The notes under the pieces are model-generated. The model saw only the letters and a list, made by a program, of their open reading frames with translations. It was not told the origin of the DNA and ran no database searches. A stretch of DNA of 56,501 bases, counting the filler, from Sluysia triapertura (Eukaryota), in assembly GCA_046118255.1 (NCBI GenBank). It is 4 parts of 4 records of this genome, joined end to end, with 100 filler letters (N's around TTAATTAATTAA, not from the genome) between each part and the next. Parts side by side here need not be neighbours in the genome. Positions count along the whole stretch, not along the records: positions 1 to 13,782 come from JBJNIA010020404.1; positions 13,883 to 29,626 come from JBJNIA010220356.1; 2 more parts are not named here. One strand, given 5' to 3'. Positions 5,601 to 31,352 of this stretch are shown one piece after another; within the stretch, counting starts at the first letter, position 1, and each line of letters opens with the position of its first letter. The position numbers and the translations under genes are program-made.

Positions 5601-5954
5601 CTATTTTGTTGCACTTCCACAGAACTAATGCTACCTGTCATTCAATTCATTTCTAAGGCTTTTAAACGTTGCTTTAATTAAATTAAAGCTGATTTTTGAC
5701 TTTCAATTATTTGTTCGTGACGATAACCACGTTTGCTGTGGAAAGCTGATGATGATTATGATTGAATGATAGTTATTTTTAAAATTTAAATTTAAATTAT
5801 TTTTAACTTTATAAAATTTAAGATTAGCTTTTATTAAAAATTCTTTGTAAAATTTTTTAGTTCCACAATAATTATCATATCTTCTCTAAACAAAAATTCA
5901 AAATAAAAACATAAAAATTTATTTTTGAAAAAATTTAATTTTGATATTTGACTG

Positions 5955-6790
5955 CTATGTATGATACTTCTTCTCGACGTTCCACCTACTAATAAATAAA
6001 AGTAATAATAATAATGATAATGATAAGTAATAATAATAATAAATAAAAGTAACGTTGTCGTCTGTTAAATTATTGCCGCCTGAAATGTTAGAAACGCTTG
6101 CAATATTATTTAGTAAATCTGTAATTCGTAGCAAGTGTAAATCGTAAGTTGCTTGATCTTGTTGTTCAACTTCAACTCTTGAATAGAATGAGTGTATCTG
6201 CAATACACTTCACGCATTAAGCAGATATCTTTATTATCAGTAAGAGCTGGACACGTACGAGTAAATTCTCTTTTATTTAACATACAATACTCATGCTCAT
6301 TATCTCTACGTCGAGAGTCATTAAATCTATAATTATTAAGAGGACAAAAATACTCTATCATTGTTATGCTTTTTATTAATCCTAGGTTTATTTTTATCAA
6401 TGTAATAAAAATTATTATCATTAAGAAAATTAATTACAATTAGTTTATAATAATAAAGTTCGAAAACATGTTTATAATTTTTATAAATACTAAAAAAATC
6501 GACTTTGTATTGTTTAAGTTTATAACATTTATCTTCATAGCAGCTAAAGAAACCATCGTGTTCTTCATTGTTGTTGACATGATAATCGATATATTTCTTC
6601 TTCTCAGTTTGCGTAACTTCATATCCAACATTGTTATCTTTATTATCATTAGGGTTATCATTGTTAGACTAGCAATACTCAACTTCAACATTAATAACTT
6701 TGACATTGTCATCTACAAGATTGTTATTTTGTAAATCGTTATCTCTTCTAATGCCAATTTTGTTATACTGATCTTCAAAATTATATGCTC
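5955..6790 (-). pseudogene. Degenerate CCCH zinc-finger gene, copy 1 of the element-borne family
   Basis: An N/D-rich acidic frame with one internal stop is followed by CPALTDNKDICLMREVYCRYTH (6188-6253, C-x9-C-x6-C-x3-H). After a frameshift it continues HLLRITDLLNNI, matching HLFRLENLLKSI of ORF 27256. Confidence 0.7.
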
Positions 6791-6824
6791 TAAAGTTTTC
6801 AAAAATTTGTGAAATAGATTGTTC

Positions 6825-8938
6825 AATGATTGGCCATCCAACCAGAGGCGTTATAAAGGAAACAATAGTGAAACTTATTCAGATTGGATGACCAATATAA
6901 ATGCATAAAAGAGATACAGAATGGTTGATGTGTAAACCACTATCAGTGGTAACAACGATTAGAAATTAATTTTAATGATATAGCCACTGATGGTGGTAGT
7001 TACTGAATAATTTATTAGTTTAATTGAAAATAAAAATAATAAATGGTCATAATAATAACAAAATGTTATTATTATTATTAAACACATAAAGTTTTTCGTC
7101 TTTATTAAACATGATCTTTCTATATTTCTTTTTACCTTCTGAACATATGAAAATCTTAAAACTTAAAGTACACTTATTCTTTTACAATGTAAAAATGAAA
7201 TATAAAATGTTTTAAGTGAATATATGTTATAGTCTGGCTTTTAATATGTTCAAAAGGTGATTATACGATGTTGAGGTGTGATTTATTTTCTTGATATGTT
7301 TGTAAATAGTGATGTCACCATGTGTTGTTAAGACTCAAATGATGTAGATCATGAATTCAGAGTGTTTGGAAAGATTTGAAAGTGTATAATAATTAATTTC
7401 GAACGTGGTTGTGATTGAATTGTATTGAGATAAAAGACAAAATACTTTAGATGAATTTTAAATGTAATTTAATGGTTTAGAATGTTATGAGATTATGTGT
7501 TTAGTTGATTTTAACGATGAAGAGTGAATTGATGTAAAAGAGATAATTATGAGAGTGTTAAAATGTTTAAGAGTGTACAGAATAAAATTAAATAAAATTG
7601 TTTCTAAATTTTTATTCCGTAAATAATTTTTAATTTTTATTTGTAAATTTGTAAAAAGTTTATTTTCAATTTCTAATAATTAAAATCTTTTTAATTAATT
7701 CTATAAATAGAGATTTTTAATATTTTAATTTTATATTTTAATCTTATAGACATATAAAAGAATTATATTTTAATTTCATATTTTATGGACACATAAAAGA
7801 ATTTATATGATTATTTATGCAAATTTAATGATATCAAAAATAATAAAATGATTATAAAATTTTTCTTTCATCAAAATAATTATCATATATAAAGAGATCA
7901 TTTTTGTGGAAATTTAATAAGCAACATTATTAAAAGTTAATTGCAAGGAAGATCTCGTTGGAATCTTTTAGTACAAATTCGATCGTTGGATACTGATGTA
8001 AAGTTATTGATGTAAAATAATTGGTATTTTATAATCTGAAGATTATCAATTTTGGAGCTTAATCGAACGATTCATTCCTTTATCGAGAAATTAAAATTTG
8101 GACATATCGAATTGTTAGTAAATGTAAGTTGATAATTATTAAGTTTTCACATAAATAATTATTGTGTCAAAATCATACTCAAAATCTTGTAAACATATCG
8201 CCAAGTATCATACCTGGCTCAATTAAACTTTTAAAATCTGAAAAATAAATAAAGCTTAAACTCTTTATTTTTAAAGTATTATTTCATCACATTATATGTC
8301 ATTTTTTGCATATTGTTCGTATTATTATTCGATTTTATAATAAAATTTGGTGTTTTGTAATTTTTCCTTTGATTAAAGTGTAGTATAAAGAGGTGTAAAA
8401 TTAATAAGAATAGTACTAAGACTTGGAGTATAAATTTTCTTTTTTAATTAAATATATTAAGAATTTAAATAAGGCTGTTGAGTTAGTTTTGCGTCAAAGA
8501 TATCGAGTTAATAGTAATTTTAAATATACTTAGTAAAAGTTTACAGAAAGGAATAAAGTAAAAATTAATTACTGCATTGAAAAAATTCTGATTGTAAGAC
8601 ACTGAGCCTTTCGATATTGTAAGGAGCGTTAATTTATTTTCACATTTTATCTGTAGTTGCGTCCTCGGCCAGACGTAAAGCTCAATATACAGACGAACCC
8701 GTCCATTTAAAAATCATAATTGTTAGTTTTTATACAGAAAAGGCTAACAAGAGTATGGTTTTATGTTGATTTAATTTAACGTTGTTTTCTGTTGATTTTT
8801 GAATGTGAATTGTAGATTTTGGAAGAAATTGTTATATTGAGTAAAACTTATGTAAAAAGAATGTTTTGGTAAGTGTTTTATGAATATGTTATATAAATTT
8901 TTAATAAAATTTATTAAGAAAATAGGTTGGCCAGCACA
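6825..8938 (-). repeat. Terminal module 1 (left-pointing): terminus TGTGCTGGCCAACCT at 8938, interrupted at about 7600-8760
   Basis: 8760-8938 is the reverse-complement homolog of 16454-16680. 7220-7500 is the reverse-complement homolog of 16800-17095. Palindrome ACCACTATCAGTGGT at 6936-6950. ATTGGATGACCAAT at 6883-6896. Confidence 0.75.
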
Positions 8939-11204
8939 AACAGTATGAAATGAAACTTCGATATATAAAATTTGATGAAGATTTTCATTTAAAAATTGCT
9001 GTGGTTTTTATTATTATTATTAACCTAGGCGAAATAACTGCAGTACGCAATTTACGAAACAAAATAGGCGTATCTGTAACTATAAGTGAACAATTTCAAC
9101 GTGTAATTTAATTATCAATTGCCTACTCTAATTTGTAAGTTGCTTAATCTTAAATTGAAAGTCTAATCTTATGTTAATGCTTTAACAATTTGTGTTTTAA
9201 TTCGTTAATAATCTTGTGTTGTGTCTTTATACTTTTACTTTAACTTTACTAAATTATAACCCTAATTAAACAAATTCCGAATATCGATATATCTTTTAAA
9301 ATAGCACAATTATACAATGAAAATTCTTTTATAATAATACACTTCTATTACATAAATAGAACTAATAATTCCTTTAACAAAAATGCCTTCAATAAATATA
9401 ACTTTAATATTTACTTTAAAATAATAAAAATATTATTAAATCATTACCAGGGTTGACACAAATCACGCAAAGTAAATATTGACGCCCATATTAACTAAAA
9501 TATAATGAATAAAAAACAAGTTACTTATATGTTTATTTTAGTTGATTGCTAAAGAATAAGCTTCAATTTCACCGTTTTCTACAGATGAATTGAAGCAGCG
9601 TCACTAAAGCTAAAAAGGTTTCGGTTTCTTTATTATCTTTGCCTACTCCTGTCTTGTGATTTTCTGCAAAATTAAATTAAAATTTAATATAAATATTATA
9701 TTGTTATTGTATTGTAACATAATATTCAACTTTTCAATTTTAATTTTTTAATTTTTTTAATTTTCAAAATTTCAAATTAAATTTAATGTTTAATTTAAAA
9801 AATAAAATTATTTCAAAGTAAAATTAAAATCATTATCATTAAGTTTATGATGCTTTATATCAATTTAAAATGAGATCTAATAGAGTTAGTATAAATTTAA
9901 AATTTAATAACAATTTAATAATAAAATTTAATAATAATTTAGTAACTAGTTTTATATTGAAATTAAACAAATTTTCATTTTAAAATGAGATTCTATAAAG
10001 ACTATATGACATTAAATTTTAAGAACATAGAAAACTATTCTAATATGGGAGTTAAAATTATATTAAATTGAGATTGAGTAAAACTAGTATACTTGTTAAT
10101 AAAATTAATAACATTATTCTCGATCAAAATTAACTTTAACTAAAGAAATATTGAGAGAATAATGTTATATCAAAATTAAAATGATTATAATCGAGAAAAG
10201 TCATATTAAAATAAGATTGAATATAAAGTATATGTAATCGTAATTTAATAAAACATAAATATTTAGGCTGAGAGCAATATTTATCATTATTATTTACTAC
10301 TTATTATTATGCTATTATGATTATTATTATTCATTACTTAATTAACGAAATTATTTACTGTACTATTACTCTTCATTACTTACTATGTTACTTATTAACG
10401 AAATTATTTATTGTATTTGTATTATTATTTATTACTTGCAATTTTAATACTGAATGAAATTATTATTTATAAACAATGATTAAAAATTAAATAATTAAAT
10501 AATTAAATAATAGAATGTATATAAATATCACTTACAAATATTTTGCAAAACACAATTATTAGTTATTATACACAGTATTACGCAGAGTTACCGATACATA
10601 AAGTAGTAAAAGGAGAATAATGCTGAATATTTCATAGAAAATTCATCATTGATATTACGAAATTAAAAGAAGATTTGAAGATATCGATAGAATCAATTGT
10701 TAATATTTCGAAATTAAGGGCACAATTTACAGTTAAATATCTAAGTTTTAATTTCAAGATTCAAATCAAAAATAATTATAATTATTGCTGTTTAAGTAAG
10801 TGATATTTATTGTACTCCCAGCTTAAAATTATAATATTTAAAATTATCATAAACATATATTTTAATATTATTACTCCTTTTTTGTACAGAGCATTTAATT
10901 AATAAATTTTTGTATTTAAATTTTTTTGTTCTGAGAGTAGTGCCCCAAAGAAAGAAAGTAACATAAAATCATAATCAAAGAATACTAGTTTTGACTAAAA
11001 TTAAAATTAACAATCTTTGTAAAATAAATTGAATTCATCCTAAAATAAAATAAAAACTTACTTTTGCGTTTCCATTCCAGGTTATCGGAATGAGTATCCG
11101 AGTTCAGGTGAAATAAATTTAAAGCATAAAAACTATAAAACGACGCTAAATAGTTGATACGATAAAAAAATCGTTAAGAGACTTTAAGCTATGGGTGTCA
11201 GAAG

Positions 11205-12709
11205 TTATTTATATGTTTTATTGTTATTTGAATAATATTTTGTGATTAATAATGATTTTGAGGGCGTTATATTGGAAGAGGTCACAGGATGGCGTTTATG
11301 TTTGAAATATGAAAATTTATATTGAATTTTATTGATCATTTGAACTTTAAATTTATAAGCTGTAAAAGTAAGACTAATAAAGTCATAATTGTTTTTTAAT
11401 TGAATTGATTTAATTTTAAAAGAAAAAGAATTCATAGCTGGTTATCATATTAGACCTTAATTCTAGATTAATAGTTTTAAAATATCTTTGACTATCAGTT
11501 TTGCAAATTTTAGATTCATAATGGTTAATATTTAAGTTATAATTTAAAACATTAAAATTTAGTCTCGAAAAACAACAATATTTACTATTTATTAACATAT
11601 TAAACGATGTAACTATATTAAGTATAAATTTTGATTTCAATAATTGTTTTCGATAGTCTCCGTCGTTCTGGATCTTGGCTTGTTTAAATTCTGAAATTAT
11701 AAAGTCATTATTGAAATAGTATATATATAAATGATAAATTATAAGATCAAGAAGTTGTGAATTAAAATTATTAACCGTGAATTTTTGGCGGCTACCACGT
11801 CCACGTATAGACAAATAAAACAAATTAATCAAACGATATCTTTCTGCGCTAGTAGGAAGTCCCATCATATTCTTGTTAAATGTAATAAAGCTTTGCATGC
11901 CAAGTTGTGCTCTCATCATTTCCGCAACATCTAAGAACCTGACGTCTAATACGTTGTCTTCTCTTATGACAGAACGTCTTGAAATCGTTTCGTGGTTATT
12001 CAATAATATGGCCTGAAAATGAAGGTGTTCATTTATATCAGATCGCATAACCAGATAGTGCTGGATTGCCACTTTTTTTATCAAATTGGTTATATTTAAA
12101 TATTTCAAAATTTATCATCTTTATATCATCATTATTTAAAATAATAAAAACAGAAAAACTAAATTCATCTTTAATTGATTGTAACACATAATGGATTCTT
12201 AAAAATTTCATCATTATATCATTGATATTTAAAGATACTAAGCTAAATATAGAGTTCTCATACGTATGAAGAAATAACAATAAATGTAGTTGTACTAACT
12301 TTTCTTTTTCTGAATCAGTCGACTGATTAGGATTATCAGAAATAGAGTCATGATGGATACATATAACACTGCGTATATTGGTCATATCCTCAAATTTAAT
12401 AATCACTTTATGTTGACTTAAACTTTTGTTATTGAATGGGTAACTTGATTTTAATTGTATATCCGATGGTAAATTTGGAGCATTTATCTTCAATGAGTTA
12501 TCTACAATAAACCGGTTGGAAACATATACCCAATTTTCTTTTACGTTGGAAACTATCAAATGCTTAACATGTTGTAAATGAGCGTCAGTTTTAGACGTAC
12601 TAAATTTATTTCCACTATACGAATTCAAATTACCATAAGCTGCTACGGAATTGTTTCGAACAACATCACTAAAGTAATTCATATTTGATACAGATTGAAA
12701 AAACTTCAA
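11205..12709 (-). pseudogene. Frameshifted lineage-specific ORF 'X' (three overlapping ORF pieces), function unknown
   Basis: Consecutive minus-strand ORFs 12709-12038, 12108-11416 and 11435-11205 lie directly downstream of module 2. They share peptides with 22480-23290 (YFKTxxLxL, NRFI/NQRFI) and 18967-19251 (K[YF]CxFxxLxF). Confidence 0.6.
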
Positions 12710-12904
12710 AAGATCGAGCTATGCCAAGTTTTGTTTTGGTTTATTTTATTTTTTATTGCAGCTAAATTGATCTCGAATTTACCACTATGATTTTTGTTAA
12801 AAGTTTTATTAATACTTAAAATTAAATTGTGATAAAGTTGCCAAAACTCATTTTAATTGTTAAAAATTTTCTGTCTGCTGCAATTGTGTGCAGATCAATA
12901 GAAA

Positions 12905-13782
12905 TTAGTTATTGGATTGAGCAAATGTGCGTGTACTATTTTTAGTACAATATAGTCTGCCTTGCTATTGTCTAGAATGCCCAATCAGAGTATATTTACT
13001 ATAATGACGGCAATCTGGACTCTGATTGGGTAATCACATAATTCGTAAACTTTTGGATTATACACCATCATCAGTAGTGATTTGTAATTTACGTAATTAA
13101 ATGAGGTGTCACAACTGATGATGGTGACAACAAATTTTAATCTGCCTCAAGATTTGAATGAAAATAATTGAAATATTTAATTAAAATAATTAACAATAAT
13201 AATAGTAACAATAATAAAGGATAAAAATAAAGTACATAATAATAATGAATAACATATTAATGATTATAAAACAATAATAACAATATTAGAAATGATGAAT
13301 TATTGTTGTTATTATTGTTATAAGGATAATTTAATACATAAACCCTTCAAAGTCTTTCCATACATGATCTTTTCTGTTTCTGATTTAATTTTCTAACATA
13401 TGGAATGAAGAGAAAAAGAGGAACAAATGGTGTGATAAAGAGAAAGTTAATGAATTGTCTGGAGTTATCTTAGACTCTATTCAAAATGGAAATAATTAAA
13501 TTTATAAGTGAATTGAAGAATGTTGAATTAATTTATTGAACTTATAGAAGGTTTGTGCTTTAAATGAGGTTTTTGTATTAATTGTGTTGATTAAAATGCT
13601 GTTGAAAAAATTGGAGTTATTTTGACTTTAAAAGATGATTGCGAAATAATTCTATATATGCTACAATGTTTTTACAATTGATTGAGGATGATGAGTATGA
13701 TTATATGAAGTAGTTTTAAACTGTTGTTGTTGATTATAGTTTTAGGTGAGATGATCTTTGTTTCTGAAATAGTTAATAACGA
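12905..13782 (-). repeat. Terminal module 2 (left-pointing, truncated by contig end)
   Basis: Perfect 12-bp inverted repeat CCCAATCAGAGT/ACTCTGATTGGG (12980-13030). 17/18 inverted repeat at 13063-13126. Conserved ACATAAA...ACATGATCTTT...AACATATG block as at 7081-7150. G-rich arm. Confidence 0.75.
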
Positions 13783-13882
13783 NNNNNNNNNNNNNNNNNN
13801 NNNNNNNNNNNNNNNNNNNNNNNNNNTTAATTAATTAANNNNNNNNNNNNNNNNNNNNNNNNNNNNNNNNNNNNNNNNNNNN
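13783..13882. other. Artificial 100-bp contig spacer (N44-TTAATTAATTAA-N44)
   Basis: The identical spacer occurs three times, and the linker gives stops in all six frames. Confidence 0.97.
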
Positions 13883-14199
13883 AACAAATTTTAATTAAAT
13901 TAATTAACAAATGTACTTTAATGTTTTAACAAATTAAACCTTTTACAGGGTTATTTTTTTCGTATCTCTCATCATTTTACTTTGATTAAAATATTCTCTA
14001 TAGTTATCTTGCTACTTCAGTTCATCATAATGCCTCGTCTTAGTTCTTTAATAACATTCTATCAACCCTTATTCTTCACTAATCCCAACAATATACAAAA
14101 CGCGCATATAATATAGCTATGTTCTAAATCGCCTATATAATTTGATTAAGTAATGAAAATATGATGTGATAAGTTATTTTAATTTGAAAAACTCCATTA

Positions 14200-15165
14200 A
14201 ATGTATGTGCACAATTTGTGGTATTGTCTTGATATTGACGACATCATTAGCCTTAAAACATTGATTAGAATATTTTGTTAAGTGAGGTTTTTATACCGAT
14301 GGAAAGGAAAAGGATTTGGGAGTCGAATAAATGGCCAAAATTGAAGCTTATTTTAACTAAATTGACTCAAGAAGAGATTGCCAAAAGGTAGATATTTCAT
14401 AAATCGTATGACTTTGCAGAAGCAGTTAGAGACTTGCGGAATTCACGTTAATACTAGAACATTAGAAGGAGACTTTTAGACTATGGTTTGCGAGCGAGAC
14501 GACTCAGAAGAAAGCCTAAGTTGACACCACGAATGATCAGTAAAAGGTTGATAATAGTCTGATCGGTTATCTGCATCCATGGTCCTGGCAGACCGTTCAT
14601 TGTTGATGGAATCAGCATCAATATAGGAATTTTCTTAAACAAAGCTTCTTCGGGTTCTGGAACGGTGAACACCAATTTATGCAGGATGGTACACTATGCG
14701 CAAGTTTCCCGATGCTAACCTGACCTGGAAACTCTCCAAGCGTGAATCCCATAGAAAATCTACCAAGACAGAACTTATTGAAACCCTGTTAAAAGTATGA
14801 CATATCGATGACGAGATCAAAGCTCCTCCGTGACATGCCTTTAAGGATCAGGAAGTTATTGGATAACAAAGGAGGGCAAACAAAGTACTGATACAACAAT
14901 TGGTACATATTTGATTTGTAGTAAATTGTGCCATCATTCTATATGAATAAAATTTCTGTATGTTTTGGATCTAGGTATTTTTATCTATTATTTTTCCTTC
15001 AGAAGAAAGTTTTGGAGAAAGTAGTACATTTTACATTTTCCGTGACAATTGTCGGTAAATGGCATATATTTATACACTTTTGATTAATAGTTTCTTAGTG
15101 TCCTTGAAAATTGTTGAATTTTATTACAAAATGGTCTTGAGTCTAATAATTTGGCCATCTATTTA
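14200..15165 (+). mobile_element. Degenerate Tc1-family (DD34E) transposon remnant
   Basis: Broken frames read TIRRRLLDYGLRARRLRRKPKLTPRMISKRL, FMQDG, WPGNSPSVNPIENL and DMPLRIRKLLDNKGGQTKY* (stop 14889-14891). A TIR-like right end CTAATAATTTGGCCATC lies at about 15143-15160. The left end is unclear. Confidence 0.85.
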
Positions 15166-17862
15166 TATGTCAGGTTATAAATAGATTAATTTCAATCAAT
15201 TTTAAAATAGTGTTTATGTGTGTTTATTATGTCAAATTGAATATATATTACAAATTATAGATGAACTATGTTTAGTTTAAAAATATATACGAATAATATT
15301 TTAAATCAATAAATTTATAAATAGAATTTTGATTTTGTGTAGTGTTACATTAACTAACGAAAAAACAAATGTCAAGGTCAGGTTAAAAGTAGTATATGAA
15401 GAATAATAATTATATTAGATCACACAGAAAAAATTCAGTAATTTTCTTTATAAATATTTATCAAAGAAGTATTGAAGAAATATATTATAATATTTGTAGA
15501 AAACTTGATTATTACTAAAGAAATATATTGTTGAAAAATATATTCTAATCCTTCGGAGATAATTTGAGATCAACTACTTGTATTCGTTAGTTAATTTTTG
15601 TATAGGTTTTAATTCGTTTTTAAAAGAACAGTAAATTCTACTTAATTTTAATAGTTAATTTAAAGAGATATTTTTAATTATCCAGTAAAAAAACCTTTAA
15701 TATCCCAAAAAGAACTTTATTAGTTATTTAATTTATATTCTGTAGAAACTTAAACTTATTAAATTTTTTATAAAAATAGAAACCGATTTTATCGGTAGTA
15801 AAATCAATTAAAACCGTTTTTAATAAAAAGAACGGTAGTAAATTTATTATCTATTTAAAACTTTTCGAGTAAAATATTATTTCCCTATAAAAATAGTTGC
15901 AATCTACTAAAAATATAATTGCCAATCGATCACTTAAAATAACTATTGACCTCCTTTAACTATCTTTTGTTTGCTACTTAAAACTTAGCCCTTAAGTGTG
16001 TAAGACTAAGATTGTAAGAGACTAACGTGAATTACATTTCACTAAAACCGTTTTAACTTTTTAAACAGAAAACTTTTTATTAAAATTATCCAGTAATTTT
16101 ATTATTTTCGACAATAAGGAAAAACAAATAAATAGACGAAGGTTTATTAAGATCAAAATGATAAAATATACTTTATTAAGAATAATAAAAAATATTAAAT
16201 ATAAAATATTGTTGCTAGAGTCGCTTAAATACTGATAATTCGAAAAACTGCAAACGGATAAAATCAGTCGTTAAGGTACCAAGTGCCTTAAATTTTAATT
16301 CCAATAAACGAATTGAATCTTTAAATTAAGACAAAACGTTGATAATGCTGGAGCAGAACTGGAATAGACTAATAACACTGGAGTAGACAAATAACTGTTA
16401 CTGTTTTCTCTGTTACCAATTTTTGTATATGAGTGTTGGGATTGTCTAGTTAGTGTGGTGACCAACCTATTACATTTAACAAAATTCATTAGAAATTTTC
16501 AGTTAAACATTACAAAGCCAGATTCACTTTCAAAATATACAATATACATTTTCAAAAATTCATTAAAAACATTTTTTACATAATCCTATGTCAGTATAAT
16601 CAAAATCATATGTTTCAATATAACATTCATCCTTAAAATATACAACTCACAATTTTAAATTCACAATTCAATACAAATACGACTAAAATCATAACCTTTT
16701 CAACACCACACCTTTTAGAATTCGTCAAAACCGTTTCTATATCTTATTTCTCTTCAGCTCCACCAAAATCAACCCCAATCTTTCAAAACATTTTAAATCT
16801 ACAATCTCATAACATACAAACCACAATGACATTCAAAACCATCAATTTACATTAAAAAGGTTCATCAAAAATATTTTATGCGTCATTTTTTAACAATCCA
16901 ACTACAACCACATTCGAAATTAACTACCAGACACCTTCAAATTAATTCAAACATTCTAAATTCATGGTCTGTTATCATATAATCCTCAGCAACACAGAAA
17001 GCAATATTACTTAAATATATCAAGAAAATAAATCACATTTTTAACATTGTATAATCACCTTGCGAACATTCCAAAAGCTAGACTATAACTTATCTTCTTT
17101 TCATCCTCGAAACTAGTCTCTTTCAACATATCTTTAACCCACAATCTACTAACATCTAAACATTATTTCATTCATAACATCAATGTATATTTAAAATCCA
17201 TGTAAAATATTTATATCATTTTTAAATACTTAAATCGTAAGTTTCTACATAATAACATTTAACCTTCACACATCATTAAAGATATTTGACTATTTTTAGT
17301 CGATTTAAATATGTTGAGAATAAATAAAAGGGTACAATGAAGATCGTGTTATAATTCAGATAAAATAAAAGGATTTATGTATTTTAGGATAGTAATAATA
17401 ATAATAATAATAACATTCTTTGTTATTATTATTATCACCATTTTTAATTTTTATCATTTTTATCTCAATTTAATTTTGTCTTGTAATTTATTAATTTAGT
17501 AACTACCTCTACAGTGGTGACTGCATTAATTTACACTTACAGTCATTGTCACTGTCATTGACAGTGGTTTGCATGTCAATCAGTTGACTTTTAATCATTA
17601 TTACTGGTTGTCCAACCAGAGTTATTCTCATCACTATTTTTATATTCCTTTGGTTGGACGGCCAATCAAGTTTATTTTTTAATGCAGCCAATCCAGACAC
17701 AGACAGAGAATTTAGTAACACAAAAATTTATTTTCGTAACTCACAAATTTGTTTGATGACTGAAAAATCAATTTAATTGTAGCTCACAAAATTATTATTT
17801 TAATTCAAATTTATTCATAATAAATAAGGCAGTTTTTCATCATTTTATTAAAGTTAAATTAA

Positions 17863-19251
17863 ATGACTCAAAAGAAGTCAATGACAGAAGAATTCAATAA
17901 ATTTGTACAAGCTATATTAACGTATAAAGAAAGTAGAAACTTTCAAGAAATATCGGATTTTATTTATTCATTTAATTGCTGTCCTGACATAGAACCGATA
18001 CTCTTTTATCAGCAACTTAGATGTGCATCTATTATGTTCGTAAAATTTAATATACCCAAGCTGAATTTTGATTATGAATTTGATTATAAATTTTCTTGAA
18101 TACCGGCACGACCTTAGTAATCCCGTTACAAGTATTGGTTACATTAGAATTTGGTTTCGGCACGTTATCCATGAATCAACCTTAAATCGTTATAGTGAAT
18201 CAGTAAAATATAATACGAAATTTTTGAATCGTTTTTATCCTAAGAGTTTATTTCTAAGAGATCTTGAAATGGTTGAAATATTTCACGCATTGTTAAAGTC
18301 GATCAAAGATTTGCATTCCCAGTTAAATACAATATCACCTTTAGTAAATATGTGGTTTAATTCAGATGCGTTAAAATTAGTAGACTTAGATGTGAACAAT
18401 ACCGCTATTGATTCGTTCGAAGTTCTTAATGTCGATGATGAATCAATGAATATGGAATCTATTATAATTAGCGATGATGATGACAATTTTTCTCAAATCA
18501 TACAAATGCAATTCCCAGTTCTAATTCACATTATGACGGAGATGAACGATTACACTGAGAATATACATCACCAAACTATGCGAACGATTATGAAGCTATT
18601 TTACAGAAAGCAAAGAAAATACCTAGAATCATTATGGTAGTTTACATCATTATAAGTTCCAAGACGGCTTGCGATCGGAGAAATGCACAAACGCTATAAA
18701 CGCACCAAATTCGAATGAACTTATCAAAAAGGCATTCTGCCTATTCAATAGCGATCAAAGCGGGATTTGTATCAAGTCCGGGATCTAGTGCCAATATGTC
18801 CACGCAGTCAACCAATTAGTATCTACCTATGTTGAAAACTTATACTATGATGACCATCTTTCTAGAATTGAAAATCTTCTCAGAAGTTTCGGATCGTCAG
18901 CTCAAGGTACGTCAAATAACAATTTATGTTTAGATAAACAAAAAGTAAATAATTTCTGTCATTTTTTTGATGCTACTAAATTCTTTTATTTTTATTCAGA
19001 TAGTGAAATGTGGATCTCAATCAAAGTCATTTTTAAAATATAAAATTGTTACAAATAAATTTTGTGCTTTTTACTCCTTGATCTTTATTGATTATTTTAA
19101 AAGTTCTTATTATCATATAAATTCAAAAAATAGAAGTTTTTTTAAGATATGTAAATTAAATTTAATTCAAAAGTTAAATTTTAACTTAAAGATTACAAAT
19201 GTGAAACAACCACAACACACCATAAAAGTATATAGAATTTTCAGACAGTAG
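17863..19251 (+). pseudogene. Chimeric RUN-domain + CCCH zinc finger + family C-terminus pseudogene (frameshifts, one in-finger stop)
   Basis: VTSIGYIRIWFRHVIHESTLNRY...FLNRFYPKSLFLRD matches the RUN-domain C-terminal blocks. CLFNSDQSGICIKSGI*CQYVH lies at 18738-18803. The downstream HLSRIENLLRSF...DKQKVNNF...EMWISI aligns with ORF 27256. Confidence 0.75.
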
Positions 19252-20181
19252 TTCACAATATTACGATGAATTTTCAGATAATAGTTGACAGATATTTGGT
19301 AAAGTATTGGGGACAGTATTTGATACATTATTTAACACAGTATCTCATACAAATTTTGGACCGCACAGATTATTATTAGTGGAATTCGTTCGAGTATTCT
19401 GAACTTTATTAATTGTATCAAACATTGAAAGTAATTGTAATTATTATTGCATTTCTGTCTGAAAAATTAAAATATTTTATTTTATTAACATTAAAATTTA
19501 TCATTATTAAACTATTTGCTATTTTCTATTTTGTTGTTATTAAGTGTTTATATCTTTGTTGAATAAAATTTCTTGTGATTTCATTGCTTTATTAATTAAT
19601 TGTTAAGTATAAAGAGAGAACCGTAAAGGAAATATAAAACAAAATAGAATAACATAAAATAAAGCAAGACGAAATAATATTTACTCTTATAACAATTAAA
19701 GTCAAAGTTGAGTATCCTCGCAAAAAAAACAAAATAAATAGAACCAAAAAACTTACTTGCGTTTCCATTCCCGGTCATCTGAATTATTATTATTATTAAA
19801 AGTAATAATACGATTTAAATTTAATGTTTGATAGTAAATGTAAGCACAATTAAAGTTAAAAATTCGTAATTTTTATTAAATAAAATAAAAATTTTTATAA
19901 TACAGATTACAAGACTTAAAGAGTTGTAGGATAAGGATAAGATTCAAGTAAATAAAAGTGTATTACAATTTAAACTGATGATAAGTATTTAACTTATGAT
20001 TAAATAAGATTTTTCTTATCAGGTGCTTCTGACATATTAATATATTACTTTTAAATAATTTTTAAATAACAATCAATTGTTGACTTTATTCAACTTTTCA
20101 AATTGTTAATCTAAATCCAGTAATTTTTTAAGCTACTGTTTTTAATTTGTAATTACTAGTTACGCTGTAAAATTAATCATG

Positions 20182-20290
20182 ATTGGGCGCCCAATAATGA
20201 TAATGTAGAAAAATAGCATTGATTGGACGTCCAATCAAACAAAATAATTGCTGATTGTGTTGTGTACATAGTAGTGATTGGATATCCAAT
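20182..20290. promoter_or_regulatory. Three perfect ATTGG-N4-CCAAT palindromes (inverted CCAAT boxes)
   Basis: ATTGGGCGCCCAAT at 20182-20195, TTGATTGGACGTCCAATCAA at 20219-20238, ATTGGATATCCAAT at 20277-20290. Confidence 0.7.
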
Positions 20291-21141
20291 TATATTTGCT
20301 ACTACCTCTCACAATTACAATTGATAGTAACCGTCAGTGATGGCAGTCAATAATCCAAACAAATCTAAAAACTGTCATTGCTGACAATATGCATAGTGGT
20401 AGAAACCACAAAACATGTATTGATAAATAATGTTAATGATTTAAATTAATAATAATAAAATTGAAAAATAATGATAAAAATAAAAAATAATTAATATATA
20501 ATAATAAAAAAATAAGTAATAAAATAATAATAATAAAATTATATAAAAACACATAATAGACCTTGCTTTTCCCTTATTTACATAAAACTCTTCTAAAATT
20601 CCAAAAATAAAATAAAAATGAGAACAATGATAAATAATACGAAGCATAAAAATTCTTTTTAATTTCACATTTAATTTCACAAAAAGGAGAATGCAAAAGA
20701 AATTGATAAAAGAATGTGTAAAGAAACGTGATAACGTGATTAAAAATGTTAAAGAAATTCTATTTTGATTGCAGTGTTTAAAAATGATTTTGAACTGAGA
20801 ATTTAAAGTTTTTCAATGATGTTAATGATTGAGTGTTGAAGAATTGTAAATTTGAAATGTTTTGGATTAACATTAAAATGTACATTTGATAATTTTAGAT
20901 GTAAATTGTGATTTTAATGTTGTGAAATTCTGAATTAAAATGATCAAAAGTATTTAATATTTTAATGAGTCTGAAAAGTAATATGTAAAATGTTAAGAAA
21001 AGTGATATTTAATGTATAATAATGATTTGATTTTTAAATAAAAAGGTTGGCAACCACACATGGAAACTGAAAAATAATTGCAATTCCTTGAATACACTAA
21101 AAAGATAAAGTTTAAAATGGTATCCACATTTCCAATATAGT

Positions 21142-22400
21142 TGTAGCGACCAACCTTAATAACCACTAAAATTTTGTTGTAAATCAACATCTTTTCCTTT
21201 TCATTTCGTTACATCTCAACAGTTATACATTCATCTATTCACAATTCCACAAAATCTAAATCCAAATTATATTAACTAATTCACCAAAAACATTACTCGA
21301 CATTCTCAATAATCCAACAACAAACTCATCCATTTAATACTTTCGAACCCTTTATTTTATACTACACTCTAACAATCAATACCTAATAATTCATAACATT
21401 TATTCAATAGTTTATTTGCTCAAACTAAGTCACAATTATAAACTTATAACACAAAAACCACAACGACATCTAATACCATTCCATAACACCAATAAATCTA
21501 CTCGAAACGCATAAAATACCCAATTCACACCTTCGAATCAATTGCAACGTTTCAAATGCACTATTCATCTATGCATAATCATCATTAATACAAATCTACA
21601 ACACCAAAAACATTAAACAAATTAATTACACAAAACATAGTATACACACCTTAAATATACAAAGAGTTGTATTGCAATTGTTCTTAGATTCATTAAATTA
21701 CAATCTTCTCAATAAACCGTTTATACCCGATATCTCAATACTTAAACCTTATTTTTAATTTTTAACTTCAATCAATATTTAAGAACTTATTCTAACATCC
21801 TCTATTTCATTTTTGACTTAACTCATTTATCATATCTTTAAAAGTTAAATATATTTATCAAATCTTTCAAAACAATCCTTACTCAGAAAGTTAGTTTCAA
21901 ATACATTTTAACTTATTTCAACACGCTAAACCTTTCAAGAATTTAAGCTAAATCTAATACAGTTTTAAAGAATTCAATTTTATACAGTGAGATAACAACG
22001 ATAACTCGAGCATTATACACCCTGTTATCGTTGCTATTTCACTCATTTCCATCAATTTTTATTTAATTTCTTTTGTTACCTTTTATATGTTAAGAACTAA
22101 GAATTAAGAAAGAGAATATCGTTTCTGAAAAAAAGGAAAGTTTATGTGTTATTTTGCTTTTTTTGTTTTAGTAATAATAATAATAATACTGTTGTTATTA
22201 TTGTCAGTCATTAAATTAATTATTATTAAAATTTTTATGCATTTTATAAAGTTGTTACTACTATCACCAGTGTCAACACTGATGATGGCTATTCATATCT
22301 AATTTTGTCTGCACAATTTAATCAATAATTTTTACATGACACCCAATCAGAGCTAATATTGTCTCAAATTCTGTTTGAAAGCTCTGATTCGATGACCAAC
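21142..22400 (+). repeat. Terminal module 5 (right-pointing), terminus TGTAGCGACCAACCT
   Basis: It carries the terminus motif, a C-rich arm, the conserved block at 22085-22150 and a palindrome at 22260-22290. The pair CCAATCAGAGC/GCTCTGATTCG at 22343-22391 is the same as in module 2. Confidence 0.72.
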
Positions 22401-22479
22401 AAAAACACATTAAAAGATAGTAGAATTGTAAAAGTGCTAAAAATGGAAACAATGTAATACACAATTTTTTGGTAACAAG

Positions 22480-23290
22480 CTAAAAACACAAAAAATGAAA
22501 CAGAACAAGATTTACTTAAATTTTAAGTCTCATGATAAATCGTGGCTACATTCAAACAGAAATATACTGTAATAATCGAAATTGGCAACCTAACCAAGTG
22601 ATCCCAACTATCATCTTAAGAAGTTATGAATTATCACATTTAATGTCTCATGTGAATCAACCAACGTTTTATAAATCCCACTCCTGACACCACTCCAAAA
22701 TGAACATAATGTCAGATTCAGAACAATCATCATCAAAACATTAGCAATGATTTTTAAATTACAAAATTCGAAAACGATATCATTAAATCTATTATCGTTA
22801 AGATTACTATTTTAGTCATTAATTTTATATATTCAATGAAAAAATGATGTAAAATATTATGTTGGCACTAAGGCGCTCAAAAGGCATTACTCGACTTAAT
22901 CGTTAACCTAAAATCATTTAATTGGCTAATTAAAGCATAAGGCGAAGATAAAGTTTCATTAAACATTAAGTTTTCAATTATAAAGAATATTAATCAAGTT
23001 GATATTAAATCAATTGGTATTACTATCTCTTCATGATCGTCGTATATAGACTTCAAAACTGTACTCTTTAATTTTGTATTTATAACGCAATCAAACATTT
23101 ATTAAATAGTGTTTATTCCCTCAATTAATACTTTTAAAATATCACACTTTAAAGTTTAGAGTTTATTTTAAAACCCTTCAATTGAAGTTGAATCAATAAA
23201 TTATGTGATAAATCAATATCTTTTAAATTCGTTAAGTCATAAAATGCAGTTAAACTTAATTTTACTTTCACATAAATTGAAAATAACTCG
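22480..23290 (+). pseudogene. Heavily decayed copy of ORF 'X'
   Basis: The fragments NYHLKKL*IITFNV..NQRFI, NIMLALRRSKGITRL, SIRRR and VYFKTLQLKL are collinear with DAHLQHVKHLIVSNV..SNRFI, KNMMGLPTSAERYRL, SIRGR and RYFKTINLEL of 12709-11416. Confidence 0.5.
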
Positions 23291-24979
23291 ATATTGTTAA
23301 TATTAAAAAAATATACTTAATACTTGATATAAGAAATTTTTTGTCATAATAATACATTCAGACCATTCAATGTTATATTATTGAGTTAAGATTTACTCAA
23401 CAATATCTAAAAAACTGTGCATGATCAAAAGACGTAAAATATACAATATCTTTCCTAATTTGATGTGAAATAATAGAACAATTTATGAGAAAAGTAATTG
23501 TAAATAACTGCAATTATTTAGAATTATTTTTAAACAATTTATATGAAAAGCAGTAAAATAATCATTGTAAATAGTTGTAATTATAAATAATTATTTTTAT
23601 GAAACTAAACTGAAAATTATTGAATAAATAAAATAATTTGATAATCATTGAAAATGATAATAGCACCAATTATTGTTTTTTAAAAAAAATTATAATTGTA
23701 GATATAATTACAAAAATTGTTTCATGATAAATAAAATAATAATTATCTAAAAATAGCAACGAGAGAGACAATAAAGTAATTTCAGATACTGATATCTCCA
23801 GATGGAACAAAAAAGGAACCAAGAATCCAGATATAATTTTGTTAATTTCTGTGAAATCCTCTGGCAGATTTACTTAGGATAAACAAGATATTAAGTAAGG
23901 TATTTGTGTACAACTTATCGTTGTCTCGCTTGTAGTAATAATAAACTAATTAGTATTGTTTAATTACTTCACATAATAGGATCCGAATAACACAAGTTAG
24001 TTAAATAAAACTAGTTGAAATAAGGATTTAGTAGATCACATTAATATCGTACAGTACAATTATAGAACTACTTAACTTTAGATCCTATCTGCTTGTTTCT
24101 TCCTAGGAAGTGTGAAATAAAACGAGAAATTAAAGCAAGTTATTCGAAAATGAAAATAAAACATCTTTTACCAACTCCAATGACATCAGAATTACATTCT
24201 TAAATAATGCCATTCGTCAACTTCATTTTCGAATACCTCTAAAGTTTTTAAATTGATTTTAATATTAAAATCATTATGATTCATCATTTTGATAAATAAA
24301 TTTGATTTTATCTAAGATAATTTAACAAAATTATTTAATCCGTTTTCTTCGATACGCTCGGATAATTAATAATTACATTATTATATATTATGTAAGTAGC
24401 AATATGTACGGAAATAATATTTTCTTGCTTAATGAGAACCAAATTTAATAATACAAATTAACAGTAGACTATAATTTATGATAATCTAAAATTCATCATT
24501 AATATTATTAAGTAAAAAATATCTTTAATTTTGAAATAATGATACCATGGTGACGATAACTTATATTTTAGAAAGAAATAATCAAGTTGATAAGTGTTTT
24601 TTACTAAATGAAAATAAAGATAATTTTATTTATACTATTTATTAGCGCTAATAAATTCATAAAATTAAATTTAGTTCTTGAGTGTTTATTTTATTACGGA
24701 TATTTGCACTAATAAAAGTGATGTTAATGATGGTTGAAGAGTAATAAAAATGAAAATTCAAGATAAGTGAAGATTTAATGAAGATGTAGTTATAGACATG
24801 ACATGAAATCGTGAAGGTGATTTATGGTCATTGTAAATATTAATATACAATTTATATGTATACATTCGAAATACAAAATGAATTCAATTTAATATTCTAT
24901 TAAATTTCAAAAATTTAAAATTCAAATTCAAAATTGCTTTTGCAAGCAGAAAGCAAAATATTATAAGCAAAACGTAAAT

Positions 24980-25750
24980 CATAAGATCTCAAGTAAGGTT
25001 TAGGGATCACCCAACCATTCTGATTTATTGTTTGTAAAACTCTTTCTTCAACATAAAATTCGAGCTTATAACATTGTTGAAAATCTTATAAATTTGCACC
25101 AAAGACATCCTGGCAAGTGTCCGTCCCAAATGAATGATTTTAAAGTCTACTCATTGATTTGTGATAATAAAGATCCAATTAAGTTCATTCGGTCTAACAG
25201 AAATAATGTTAGTTATCGTTGTTATTTTTCTAGAACAGTTTTCTGCGCATTCTTCCTATGGATATCATAGAATCTTGTGAACGTCATTTCATAAGCACGG
25301 AAAAGTTTAATGATAATGTGTCATCGTATTTAAAAAATCGACTTATTTTACAAGTTTAAAGCTATATAATTTATCCCTTGCATTTTGAATTCGATTAAAA
25401 AGGATTTATAAAAATGGTTCGTATAGTTTAATCTTTATGGGGTTGATCAAACTAATAATTTTGCTTATACTCGAATATGATTATAACTGAATAAACAATA
25501 TAAACAGTGACAGAATAAATTCAAAGCATTGAAACTTTAAAAGTAATTAATATAGTTTAATTTATAATTTATCGACGTATCTAAACCGTTGAAAAAACGT
25601 ATATATAAAGTTTAAGTAATAATGTTAATCTTATATTAAATCAGACAAAAACATATAAATTGGAACTAATGTTATCAATATTAAAATTCAAAAGTATCGA
25701 ATATGACAATTTAGGAAATAAAATTGATGAATTAGTATCCAGAAAGTTCG
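24980..25750 (+). pseudogene. Possible further decayed copy of ORF 'X'
   Basis: LQHKIRAYNIVENLINLHQR resembles LQHVKHLIVSNVKENWVYVSNR. The remainder is only weakly alignable by eye. Confidence 0.3.
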
Positions 25751-25893
25751 ATTACAAAGTGAAGATTATATTTGTAAGACAAAATTGTGAGATAACAATT
25801 AATATATATATATATAGATTCTTTTTTAATTAACCAATAACTACAAGTCCTCTTTATTTACGAATTAAAGTCTAGAGTATAAAGCCTACTAAA

Positions 25894-25904
25894 ATTATTA
25901 TTAC

Positions 25905-25951
<47 letters not shown>
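25894..25951. repeat. (ATT)n microsatellite
   Basis: Direct reading. Confidence 0.95.
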
Positions 25952-26299
25952 GTAAAGACGTTAGTTTTTTTCTTTATTTTATTTTCGTTTTTAGATCCTG
26001 ACATTGTTATTATTATAATTACTTTATTTATCAATATCATTGTTATTATTGTACTTGTTACATTAATTGATATTATTGTAACTGTAATCAAAATAAATGC
26101 AAAATATGATATTATGGAATATGTGCATCAGTCCCAAAGATTAAAAAAGGAATCTCAAACAACATCTAATGTAAAAGAATTAATTTCTTATTAGTCAAGC
26201 AAGAGTATAATTCAAAATTATGATGGTAATTGCTAAATGCTTACATTATGAAATTACGTACATTTCTTGGAGATTAACATTTGGAAACCGGGGATGACA

Positions 26300-27200
26300 A
26301 CACAACATATCACACTCACCTTCAAAATCTACAATCCACAATTTTAAATTCATCATGAACACCTTCTTACATAGTTCAATATTAACATAACCAAAATTAT
26401 ATCTTTATTCAACATCACACAATTACCTTTTAGAATGTGCCAAACATAGTCTATATTTATCTTCTTCACTTTCACTCAACCACACTCTTTTTAATGCATT
26501 TTAAAGTCACAACCTACCAACAACCTACTTTCATTCAAAACATTTACATTTATAATCCATTTTATATATTCATATTATTTCAAAATATTTAAATCATAGG
26601 CTTTCAACGATTGAACTCATCTTCAGCCAAAAACACTTACTGGTATTTAAAATTACATTTAAAACGTTTTACGAATTATCTTATAACACTAGAATCACAA
26701 CTACACCGTAAAATTTCATTGCAACAACATACGTTCATCATATCCTGACATTTAACCGCAGACATCTTAAGACAATTAACTTTTAAGAAACTAGATTTAA
26801 TATGTCCAGAAATAAACTAAACAAAGTAAGATCGTGTAAGAATTCAAAGAATTTATGTAGTTATAACATTGTGTTATTATTATTATTATCATTTTTATTA
26901 TTACCATTTTATTTTTATCAATTTTAATTTAACTTCGTTATTTAATCAGTGATTACCACTATCAATGGTGACACTGTTAGTTGCCATGTGTGAATTCTTG
27001 TCACCATTGATGGTGGTTGACTTTTCAACATAAAAATAATTTGTATTATTACTGGTTCTCTTCATTATTTTTATATCTACGGTTGGACAGCCAATCCAGT
27101 CACAGTACAAAAATACAATTTTTATTTGGCTCTTATTGATTGAATAAAAATGTATAACTACAATTTTAAAAATACCTAATAAAACTAGCCAATAGTAATT
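26300..27200 (+). repeat. Terminal module 6 (right-pointing, outer terminus missing)
   Basis: 26320-26520 aligns with 16630-16810. Conserved block at 26800-26865, palindromes at 26945-27020, GTTGGACAGCCAAT at 27082-27095. Confidence 0.72.
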
Positions 27201-27255
27201 AGTCATAATTAAAGGTAGTTAATCGTTAATTGTCTGTGATTTTCATTTATTATAA

Positions 27256-27810
27256 TTGAATATGAATGGTGATGAATGTAGAGAAGATCCTCTTCTGATA
27301 AAATTGAAGAAACGGTACGATTTGGAGATTAAGGTTGACGGTGAGCTATTTCACGAGTTTCAGTCACTGCGGCTTAAGGTTGATGAATTAAGCAATAATG
27401 ATAGTCATAAATATTCCAATAGTATATTAATTTCGAGTCAATATATTAGATCGGCACTTTGCCCATGTAGCAGTAACCCAAATGGTACTTGCACGAAATT
27501 CGGAATCAAGTGTCCATACGCGCACACAGTTAGCCAAATAGTAAATCTTAAGACCGAAGATGTATATCACGTAGGTCACCTCTTCAGACTTGAGAATCTT
27601 CTCAAAAGTATTAGAATATCAACATTAGAAACATCGGACAACATTGTATTCATGGATAATCATAAAGTATATAATTTCTATCCTGACATAAATGATAATT
27701 TAATTTTTGTTTTTAATTTAGATGATGAAACGTGGGCTTCGATAAATGACATATATAAGACTAAATTTGCGAATTTTAAAATTTTTATGAATAAATCTGC
27801 GTCTCTTTAA
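27256..27810 (+). CDS. Intact single-exon CCCH zinc-finger protein (Unkempt-like finger spacing), copy 3 of the element-borne family; ATG at 27262
   Basis: 184-aa open frame containing CPCSSNPNGTCTKFGIKCPYAH (27460-27525). It begins about 70 bp after the last CCAAT box of module 6. Confidence 0.65.
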   Translation: MNMNGDECREDPLLIKLKKRYDLEIKVDGELFHEFQSLRLKVDELSNNDSHKYSNSILISSQYIRSALCPCSSNPNGTCTKFGIKCPYAHTVSQIVNLKTEDVYHVGHLFRLENLLKSIRISTLETSDNIVFMDNHKVYNFYPDINDNLIFVFNLDDETWASINDIYKTKFANFKIFMNKSASL

Positions 27811-28444
27811 CGTCTTAAATATTATTTATAATTTTAAAAATTTTTCACCTCATATATATTTAGAATGTAAAAATTTAATACGATTTTGTAAAAGAATTAA
27901 CCGAATATTATCTATAAAGTTATTTTCCAATTTAAACAATATCATAACACAACAGTTATTAATTGATTTATAGATATAAGGATATGGTGCAGTTTATGTA
28001 GAGGTCCTGATTGTGTATTGTGATCTTTTTAACTTGTAATGTGTTATATGCTGATCTATACAATTAAATTGCATGTTTAGTTATGAACCACTACAATTGG
28101 CTCCCGGAAATTAGAACTACTAATACCGCACTTCCACTCACAGCTAACTCGCTATAATTCGTAAAACTAATCCCAATATGAAATAACAATTACATATTTG
28201 GATTAGTTACATATTGATATTTTAATGTTACTATTTTTAGCAAAAGAAAATAAATAATTTCATTACTACTTAGATAAAGTATTCTAAAAGTAATATATGA
28301 TGTTATTACAATTAGAAAGAATGAACTTATTACATACAATATGAATAGTTATTGATGTATCAAAATGAACAAACTAATTTTGTGGGTCCCTTAGTAAACA
28401 ATCATTTTCAAATTATTGTAAAATATATTGTTAAATACTCTAAC

Positions 28445-28788
28445 CTTATTGGAGCATTATGTATAATAAAAGCCTCGACAAATTTCACATATTCTCTACT
28501 TTCTGGCAATGAAGGATCTAACACTAAAATGGCGTTGAATAAATTTTTGCCAATTCGACGCATTACACCAGGATAAGACGGTGTTAATAAATCACGGACT
28601 GACTTCGGCCAATTGGAGTAGCGTTTATCTTGCTCCAAATCGTTAATGTATTTGATTGGTGCATATCGAATATCCAATAAAAATTGGGATTTACTTGATC
28701 CAACATTGGATCCATCTACATTGTTGCTACCATCGTTACTGTCTGAAGAAGCATATTGGACTTTTGTTATGGCAGATATTTGATCACT
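28445..28788 (-). pseudogene. UGGT: Isolated exon of UDP-glucose:glycoprotein glucosyltransferase (thioredoxin-like sensor region)
   Basis: Flanked by a TTTTAG acceptor and a GTTAG donor. It reads LDIRYAPIKYINDLEQDKRYSNWPKSVRDLLTPSYPGVMRRIGKNLFNAILVLDP...HNAPIR, matching the UGGT signature DIR..I...NNLE.D.RY..WP.S...LL.P..PG..R.I.KNL.N.....DP. No following exon was found. Confidence 0.85.

Positions 28789-30860: not shown

Positions 30861-31352
<492 letters not shown>

Follow-up and report, generated by a model that had tools for sequence, protein, structure and literature searches.

Homologous modules with promoter-like hairpins precede an orphan single-CCCH-finger gene and other cargo in the Sluysia triapertura genome

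Introduction

What carries a zinc-finger gene that occurs three times, each time behind a similar stretch of noncoding DNA, within 56,501 nucleotides (nt) of the genome of Sluysia triapertura (assembly GCA_046118255.1)? We refer to this whole stretch, filler included, as the window. Its GC content is 24.5%, and the pieces between its filler gaps are 12-16 kb long and may be unrelated contigs. A sequence-only reading had described three copies (here A, B, and C) of a gene for a C-x9-C-x6-C-x3-H finger, each behind a terminal module, and had proposed a family of RNA-binding proteins amplified by an element. Gene capture by non-autonomous elements is known, and the well-studied animal cases are few. 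Here, we describe the module as a repeat with six copies in the window, plus one partial copy. Three of the six precede a finger gene. We tentatively read the unit as a one-ended, promoter-bearing element with exchangeable cargo, and weigh this against the possibility that the finger genes are a duplicated host family.

Results

Three homologous finger genes

A six-frame pattern search of the whole window found the C-x9-C-x6-C-x3-H pattern exactly three times, at the places where it had been described, and the motif HLxR[IL]x[ND]LL (the HL motif) also exactly three times, once behind each finger (Table 1). Across 200 order-3 Markov simulations of the window, the mean count was 0.04 for the finger pattern and 0.005 for the HL pattern, and three or more matches were reached in 0 of 200. 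Because both patterns were derived from the copies themselves, the HL-pattern test is post hoc, and the protein match between B and C is the firmer proof of homology: the two are 40% identical over 109 amino acids (aa), ungapped, with an E value of 3.7e-20. Gene A is more distant, sharing 16 of 46 residues with B and 12 of 46 with C. Judged by their sequences, the three fingers are real, homologous, and well above chance. Copy A lies on piece 1 and copies B and C on piece 2. Linkage of A with the other two is unproven because it sits on a separate gap-bounded piece.

Copies A and B are broken. The HL motif of A begins 50 nt past the finger His, against 51 nt in the others, which places it out of frame; the motif had been described behind each finger, which is correct, and the frame difference in A had gone unmentioned. 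Gene B has frame changes both upstream and downstream of the finger, besides the stop within it. The frame 27256-27810, with its ATG at 27262, is the sole open frame in the window that contains both finger and HL motif (open reading frame [ORF] C). It had been singled out as the only copy still open, which holds with the qualification that C may itself be shortened by a one-base shift. An open, coiled-coil-like piece at the 3' end of the A cargo may belong with finger gene A.

Past selection and the length of the protein

Retention of the Cys and His residues had been taken to imply past selection at the protein level, and the B-C comparison bears this out. Over 108 codons, the proportion of synonymous differences (pS) was 0.62 and that of nonsynonymous differences (pN) was 0.31, giving a pN/pS of 0.49 (bootstrap 0.37-0.67) and a dN/dS of 0.30, which is not near 1 and is only rough because dS is close to saturation. 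The ratio was 1.38 and 0.59 in the remaining forward frames, and 1.47, 0.33 (in the frame with shared third positions), and 0.86 in the reverse frames. The signal peaks between the finger and the HL motif (pN/pS 0.37) and is weaker downstream (0.58). As far as these substitutions tell, purifying selection acted along the path separating B and C; this is not demonstrated for the present copies.

The two genes remain similar for about 190 nt past their stops. Across the 52 codons aligned there, two of the frames contain 10 and 8 stops, whereas one homologous frame is free of them (0) and has two gaps, of 6 nt and 3 nt. It is open for 71 codons in B (shuffle P 0.0008) and 56 in C (P 0.0034), and C joins it only via a one-base length difference near 27797-27800. 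ORF C may be shortened, since this frame stays open past the shift in both copies. Counting against a longer protein, pN/pS in the extension is only 0.70, conservation is highest at third codon positions, and the extension peptides of B and C gave no significant protein match (z 1.5, E 0.39). Whether the ancestral protein exceeded 182 aa appears to us evenly balanced. A candidate counterpart of the C-terminal part in A (5837-6064) failed to match, and a suggested likeness of that part to Bro-N domains was without Pfam support.

An orphan protein with an Unkempt-like finger

The finger had been likened to the third CCCH finger of Unkempt. This is indeed its best match in both Pfam and the PDB, at a score below the Pfam cut-off. 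ORF C matched the CCCH profile zf-CCCH_UNK (PF25427) best, with an E value of 1.5e-5 and 25.3 bits against a curated cut-off of 31.1; finger B, with X at its stop, gave 1.7e-5 and 25.1 bits, again under 31.1. The best PDB match of a B-C profile was Unkempt 5ELH (residues 95-126, E 0.0037). The spacing is that of ZnF3 in Unkempt (UNK/UNKL), and the match falls on 5ELH residues 94/95-126. According to the cited account, Unkempt has six tandem fingers and a RING domain, each three-finger set binds RNA with micromolar affinity, and the protein is known only from animals (PMC4358403), which makes an animal source likely for the window. In contrast to its six tandem CCCH fingers, A, B, and C have one each; against its C-terminal RING, no window piece scanned gave a RING match, and the sequence after the finger in the A/B/C family is unlike Unkempt. 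The finger gene is an orphan with an Unkempt-like finger, and a lone finger does not amount to the RNA-binding unit of Unkempt. Weak nucleic-acid binding by the protein seems to us about as probable as its opposite.

Searches for relatives point the same way. None of 30 candidates of near length and none of 284 longer ones was a homologue of ORF C, and a B+C profile run against 1.84 billion representative proteins found no genuine homologue; its sole match, to a repetitive protein over a 22-position stretch, was judged spurious. An exact-match protein collection contained 0 of 9 window proteins. ORF C had no match in PHROG, and among viral contigs 0 of 214 pattern matches were confirmed. Our literature searches found no description of the module and finger cargo in combination; supplements, whose repeat libraries could include the family, were outside their scope.

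Six copies of the module

A profile built from the inner ends of modules A, B, and C only, then run on the window, gave modules D, E, and F as its next matches (E 4e-9 to 6e-6). The earlier description of a terminal module ahead of each finger gene is correct for 3 of 3; equally, 3 of the 6 module copies precede other sequence. The module is 0.8-2 kb long and consists, in gene direction, of an outer-end motif, a C/A-rich tract (C greatly exceeding G over several hundred bases), a short conserved box, a TAA/TTA tract that is present in all six, hairpin 1, and hairpin 2. Hairpin 2 carries CCAAT-type boxes in inverted orientation, and what is generally known of the CCAAT box is the ground on which we regard the module as a candidate promoter.

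The outer-end motif was first spotted by eye, and leave-one-out scans were then made with the four modules A, B, D, and F. With the training sites set aside, the held-out end was the top-ranked site for A, B, and F and the runner-up for D. The motif lies where the C-over-G skew starts, and the flanks beyond it differ; the outer ends start TGT, preceded by T or G. At the inner end, the hairpin regions of all six modules fold better than shuffles, with z of -2.8 to -6.9 on both strands as RNA and -1.6 to -6.2 as DNA. In a covariation alignment of five modules, without F, both partners change in 8 of 35 pairs, a count that 8 of 500 shuffles also reached. Since no strand preference is evident, inverted sites at the DNA level are as likely as an RNA fold. 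The C/A-rich tract of module D contains a hairpin with 20-bp arms (21986-22043) that is absent from the other modules. A suspected module at 24400-24900 was dropped; it had no profile match and lies in a low-depth 2.7-kb contig.

Modules and genes differ in their order of similarity. Among the modules, A-B exceeds B-C, which exceeds A-C (inner z 24.5, 14.4, and 9.0; outer z 30.1, 11.2, and 3.7), while among the genes, over 138 nt, B-C (61%) exceeds A-C (45%) and A-B (44%). That modules pair A with B and genes pair B with C hints at cargo exchange; with just three copies, it is a hint and not proof.

Different cargo behind homologous modules

The homologous modules precede unrelated cargo: a finger gene in A, B, and C, with a fragment of a RUN domain ahead of it in B, and other sequence in E and F. 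The finger genes lie 580 nt (A), 1071 nt (B), and 364 nt (C) from their modules, and the front part is different in each. In B, it contains an intronless RUN fragment (PF02759), which scored 23.4 bits, above the cut-off of 22 (E 7e-5, profile positions 56-128 of 131), and matched PLEKHM1 (E 0.0015) and PLEKHM2 (E 0.037) in the PDB. The fragment corresponds to the C-terminal half of the PLEKHM1/PLEKHM2 RUN domain. It differs from these proteins in being a fragment only, with frame changes, placed ahead of a CCCH finger. The open piece before it may perhaps be the first half of the domain; profile and structure-database searches gave no match for that piece. Among 103 candidates, there was no homologue of the RUN-bearing piece, and its parent gene was not found.

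Behind module E lie two open frames. ORF E1 gave a weak lead to a galactose-binding-like fold (Atlas scores 0.88-0.90, recognition 1849; lead only). The start of E2 overlaps the E1 stop by 11 nt (12038-12048, minus strand), which would suit either a two-gene cargo or a single frameshifted gene. Units E and F have a tail in common (about 200 nt, z 8.3) that may supply a start codon and a splice donor, and about 400 nt without an ORF separate module F from its tail. Module D has no recognisable cargo downstream; DNA there was tried as an E/F tail and the match was not significant (z 1.3-1.4). The cargo is without sign of introns, whereas short introns are seen in the sequence of the window's host genes. 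Where units B and F converge, a short internally repeated stretch between their ends (19253-19460) is multi-copy by depth.

Diverged copies in one sequencing run

One sequencing run (X1), which may come from the window's own sample, covers the region, and its contigs were compared with 13890-29600 at 80% likeness. Contigs identical or nearly identical to the window had a depth of 14-21. Summed contig depth, which by the tool's own caveat is no copy number, was 41-145 over 22798-25941 and the host exon region 28038-29085, 438-828 over the C cargo/ORF bins, 668-1549 over the B cargo bins, and 2,300-20,000 over the C/A-rich bins. Distinct contigs numbering 14-18 differ at five of six listed B-cargo sites, 3 differ at the sixth, and 22 differ at 27678. 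A single diverged contig could represent an allele, but 14-22 different contigs per site cannot all do so; module and cargo are therefore both multi-copy, the module far more so. A 505-nt contig with 67 substitutions and 19 gaps covers the end of the RUN-bearing piece of B and the finger, and among the contigs listed, two correspond in diverged form to B 18469-18958 and C 27159-27434. The proposal of an element-amplified family gains from these many diverged contigs of both parts and loses in that the module is not finger-specific and its class is unassigned. What the contigs establish is the multi-copy status of each part; linkage of module and cargo elsewhere is left undemonstrated. Joints between module and tail in X1 contigs were not used, as they may be low-complexity DNA. 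Metagenome contigs gave 0 matches for two module patterns.

Surroundings

The window includes pieces of several host genes (Table 1), and the module profile had 0 matches near those of pieces 3 and 4. At 38204-39362 (plus strand), open frames of 174 and 118 codons without family matches are probably exons of a divergent host gene. The stretch 14250-14900 (plus strand) is presumably a decayed Tc1-like transposase, identified by a motif only; the summed contig depth in X1 across 13890-15461, which includes it, was 32,000-398,000. A decayed mariner-like transposase lies at 43100-43900 (plus strand; Pfam Transposase_1, E 0.0022, under the cut-off). GC-rich inverted repeats with arms of 15-27 nt at 36593-36737 and 48606-48716 are probably small non-autonomous elements.

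Table 1. Features of the window, with positions counted along its whole length
Feature	Position	Strand	Remarks
PI-PLC-X-like gene piece	1400-2614	+	
Copy A cargo, broken finger gene	5300-6830	-	stop near 6669; frame changes near 6336 and between finger and HL motif
3' part of A cargo	5375-5641	-	coiled-coil-like open piece, behind a TAT-rich tract; no Pfam match
HL motif A	6111-6137	-	frame differs from finger A; match to B piece 18789-19040, E 0.024
Finger A	6188-6253	-	C-x9-C-x6-C-x3-H pattern
Module A	6826-8938	-	hairpins 6826-7005; TAA/TTA; C/A-rich ~7140-7620 and 8300-8938, AT-rich DNA between; outer-end motif near 8938
Tail common to units E and F, E copy	10890-11095	-	ATG, three or four codons, GTAAGT donor-like site, T-rich DNA
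Cargo ORF E2	11416-12048	-	210 aa, open; no family match
Cargo ORF E1	12038-12682	-	214 aa, open; no Pfam or PDB match
Module E	12965-13782	-	hairpins 12965-13135; ends at N gap
Filler gaps	13783-13882, 29627-29726, 44212-44311		each 44 N, 12-base linker with stops in all frames, 44 N
Module B, most complete	16454-17700	+	outer-end motif 16454; C/A-rich with ~340-nt internal duplication; TAA/TTA; hairpins 17495-17672
B cargo, first open piece	17863-18099	+	78 aa
B cargo piece with RUN fragment	18074-18640	+	RUN ~18113-18358, PLEKHM1/2 type
Finger B	18738-18803	+	in-frame stop 18786-18788
HL motif B	18855-18881	+	
Open frame after stop of B	19036-19251	+	71 codons; homologous to C 27791-27973; possible lost C-terminal part
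Tail of unit F, common to E	19600-19800	-	
Module F	20177-21058	-	
Module D	21142-22400	+	back to back with F
Module C	26290-27110	+	outer end poorly defined; one arm of hairpin 2 shortened
ORF C	27262-27810	+	182 aa, open; finger 27460-27525; HL motif 27577-27603
Open frame overlapping end of ORF C	27791-27973	+	56 codons; possible lost C-terminal part
Thioredoxin_14 domain exon	28408-28788	-	domain match; which we take to be UGGT-like
Probable seventh module, outer end only	29729-29814	-	best motif match beyond four training sites; z 4-5 to A2, B, F; runs into N gap
Calmodulin gene	30860-31352	+	start ATG split off by intron of ~43 nt
STIM EF-hand piece	54950-55195	-	
THOC2 N-terminus piece	55457-56368	-	

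Discussion

The repeat anatomy, the homology, the selection, the differing cargo, and the many diverged contigs are established. Our leading explanation, which we hold tentatively and would not yet call probable, is a non-autonomous mobile element, one-ended and equipped with a promoter, whose cargo is carried along and swapped in a manner like Helitron read-through capture. For mobility, promoter activity, mechanism, and protein function, we infer the following. The module would be a cis-acting end with an inward promoter, followed by variable cargo and a loose far end. In the A/B/C subfamily, the cargo would be the orphan single-CCCH gene, translated and under purifying selection in source copies. 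Unit B would have acquired a RUN fragment from the host, placed between its promoter and its finger; units E and F would have taken other cargo, and most inserted copies would then decay. Mobilisation would occur in trans by an enzyme encoded outside the window, with capture by read-through as in Helitrons. The protein most likely binds zinc and, through its one finger, may bind single-stranded nucleic acid weakly, while the HL helix could be a packing or oligomer surface. A bolder version is a long shot: the unit would be an undescribed type of animal element, a one-ended promoter cartridge whose double hairpin is both promoter and point of cargo exchange, into which RUN-like host domains are slotted, and whose own selected CCCH protein recognises the hairpins (as RNA or single-stranded DNA) and aids movement or expression.

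Several points weigh against a mobile element. Pfam scans of the window found no transposase, Rep-helicase, or reverse transcriptase for it, and we found no target-site duplication, 5'-TC, CTRR end, or partner terminus. No empty site or polymorphic insertion is shown by the one run, which is perhaps the window's own sample, and its summed contig depth does not equal copy number. Three other covariation measures of the hairpins were unremarkable (matched by 61, 86, and 347 of 500 shuffles), structure models were unusable (predicted local distance difference test scores [pLDDT] of 31 and 35), and the discordance between modules and genes is based on three copies only. Finally, sustained purifying selection suits a host gene family at least equally.

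Such a family is the strongest alternative, although on balance we consider it unlikely. The finger genes would be a lineage-specific host family multiplied through segmental or dispersed duplication, with birth and death of copies, and its ancestor would have adopted a common repeat as its promoter; the other modules would be independent insertions or belong to other families. Besides the purifying selection between B and C, this would account for a module at 364-1071 nt ahead of 3 of 3 finger genes, for the likeness of B and C over about 190 nt past their stops, and for the lack of a mobility enzyme and target duplication. It sits poorly with the end of homology at the outer-end motif, where the flanks differ, and with the discordant similarities of module and gene. 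Unrelated cargo behind homologous modules is likewise hard to fit, as is cargo without intron signs in a window whose host genes have short introns.

Another way to read the modules is as long terminal inverted repeats (TIRs) with inward promoters, as in Pack-MULE or Foldback elements, with B (plus strand) and F (minus strand) as the ends of a 4.6-kb element. These two do face each other, and the same outer-end motif stands at both starts. Long-TIR gene capture exists in animals, where Ssk-FB4 of Drosophila is described with TIRs of about 700 bp and a 9-10-bp target duplication (PMC8277862), and long terminal modules beside captured, selected coding sequence in several copies recall such Pack-MULE/Pack-TIR elements. 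However, a matching TIR pair is lacking: no modules other than B and F face each other, and B-F is one of the weaker module matches (z 4.0 inner, 3.7 outer). None of the remaining modules (A, C, D, and E) has an inverted partner within its own piece. Nor is there an 8-11-bp target-site duplication for B-F, which decay could have removed, and no flanking direct repeat of at least 3 nt was found within the offsets tried. We therefore regard this reading as improbable.

We find it distinctly improbable that the module is a Penelope-like pseudo-long terminal repeat (pLTR), or an LTR, that moves intronless cargo via RNA, with the CCCH protein as an accessory ORF. Penelope-like elements are described with tandem and inverted structures, a preference for microsatellites, and a start site retained in the pLTR, and the Naiads among them are without a hammerhead (PMC8557442). 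Modules F and D adjoin back to back, an (ATT)n tract precedes C, the cargo appears intronless, and a promoter-bearing terminal module with inverted neighbours, accessory ORFs, and captured host genes would recall Penelope-like elements and Terminons. However, an Rfam scan of 5000-29600 gave 3 matches, all far under curated scores, and no hammerhead, and no reverse transcriptase was found in the window. Penelope-like copies are 5'-truncated, whereas the 5' boundary of the module is fixed. As for an LTR, the likeness is limited to the TG start (the outer ends begin TGT), with no second direct copy behind any cargo and no 4-6-bp duplication, and inspection by eye showed no primer-binding site past the inner ends. 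We consider it very improbable that the units are remnants of an endogenous large DNA virus, or of a virus-like element, whose genes share a promoter module: the intronless orphan ORFs would suit this, as would large DNA viruses among the weak Atlas neighbours (0.85 and 0.80; lead only), but viral contigs hold no relative, 67 of 67 motif matches in them (GC 35-68%) fit the short motif only, PHROG has no match for ORF C, and the window has no viral core gene.

A repeat family without recognised ends precedes at least three kinds of cargo; one of these evolves under purifying selection, and one is joined to a host trafficking domain. If it is a mobile promoter with exchangeable cargo, it would be a natural source of chimeric genes in this lineage and would imply a mobilising enzyme not yet linked to it. 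If the genes are a duplicated host family, this would still be an orphan zinc-finger family with a repeat-derived promoter, which is of modest interest.

Comparison with known elements

The module-bearing element is filed under no known family, as the hallmarks of Helitrons, Helentrons, Pack-TIRs, LTR elements, and Penelope-like elements were found only in part or not at all. DINE-1/HINE Helentrons are described as having a microsatellite, inverted repeats close to one of their ends, and a tandem-derived tract in the centre, without a target duplication (PMC4067079). The module resembles them in its inverted repeats near one end and the lack of a target duplication, in the TAA/TTA microsatellite of all six copies, and in central repeats (the ~340-nt duplication in B). 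However, the units differ in having coding cargo, and they lack the paired subterminal inverted repeats of Helentrons, which have 11 or more identical bases; the outer motif and inner hairpin arms share a 6-7-base core without joint change. TT flanks or a short terminal palindrome were not seen by eye at the four outer ends, whose copies are old. Replitrons have loose right ends and short direct repeats at their termini; the cited account describes them in plants, algae, and protists (PMC10288648).

Helitrons start 5'-TC behind A, whereas the module outer ends are TGT after T or G. Their CTAG end with a nearby short hairpin was not found either; the module hairpins are long-looped and placed between module and cargo, and the window has no Rep-helicase. 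We found no 3' CTRR with a hairpin; the far ends of the units are undefined, and the scan, with loops of 15-74 nt, would miss short ones. According to the Helraiser model, Helitrons need the left but not the right end, and genes are captured by read-through; in the bat family HelibatN3, a promoter comes with six codons and a splice donor (PMC4778049). This last arrangement is much like the tail that follows modules E and F. By analogy, Helitron read-through capture is the closest way of working despite the missing TC start: one end is fixed and the other loose, and promoter and gene pieces would be amplified together.

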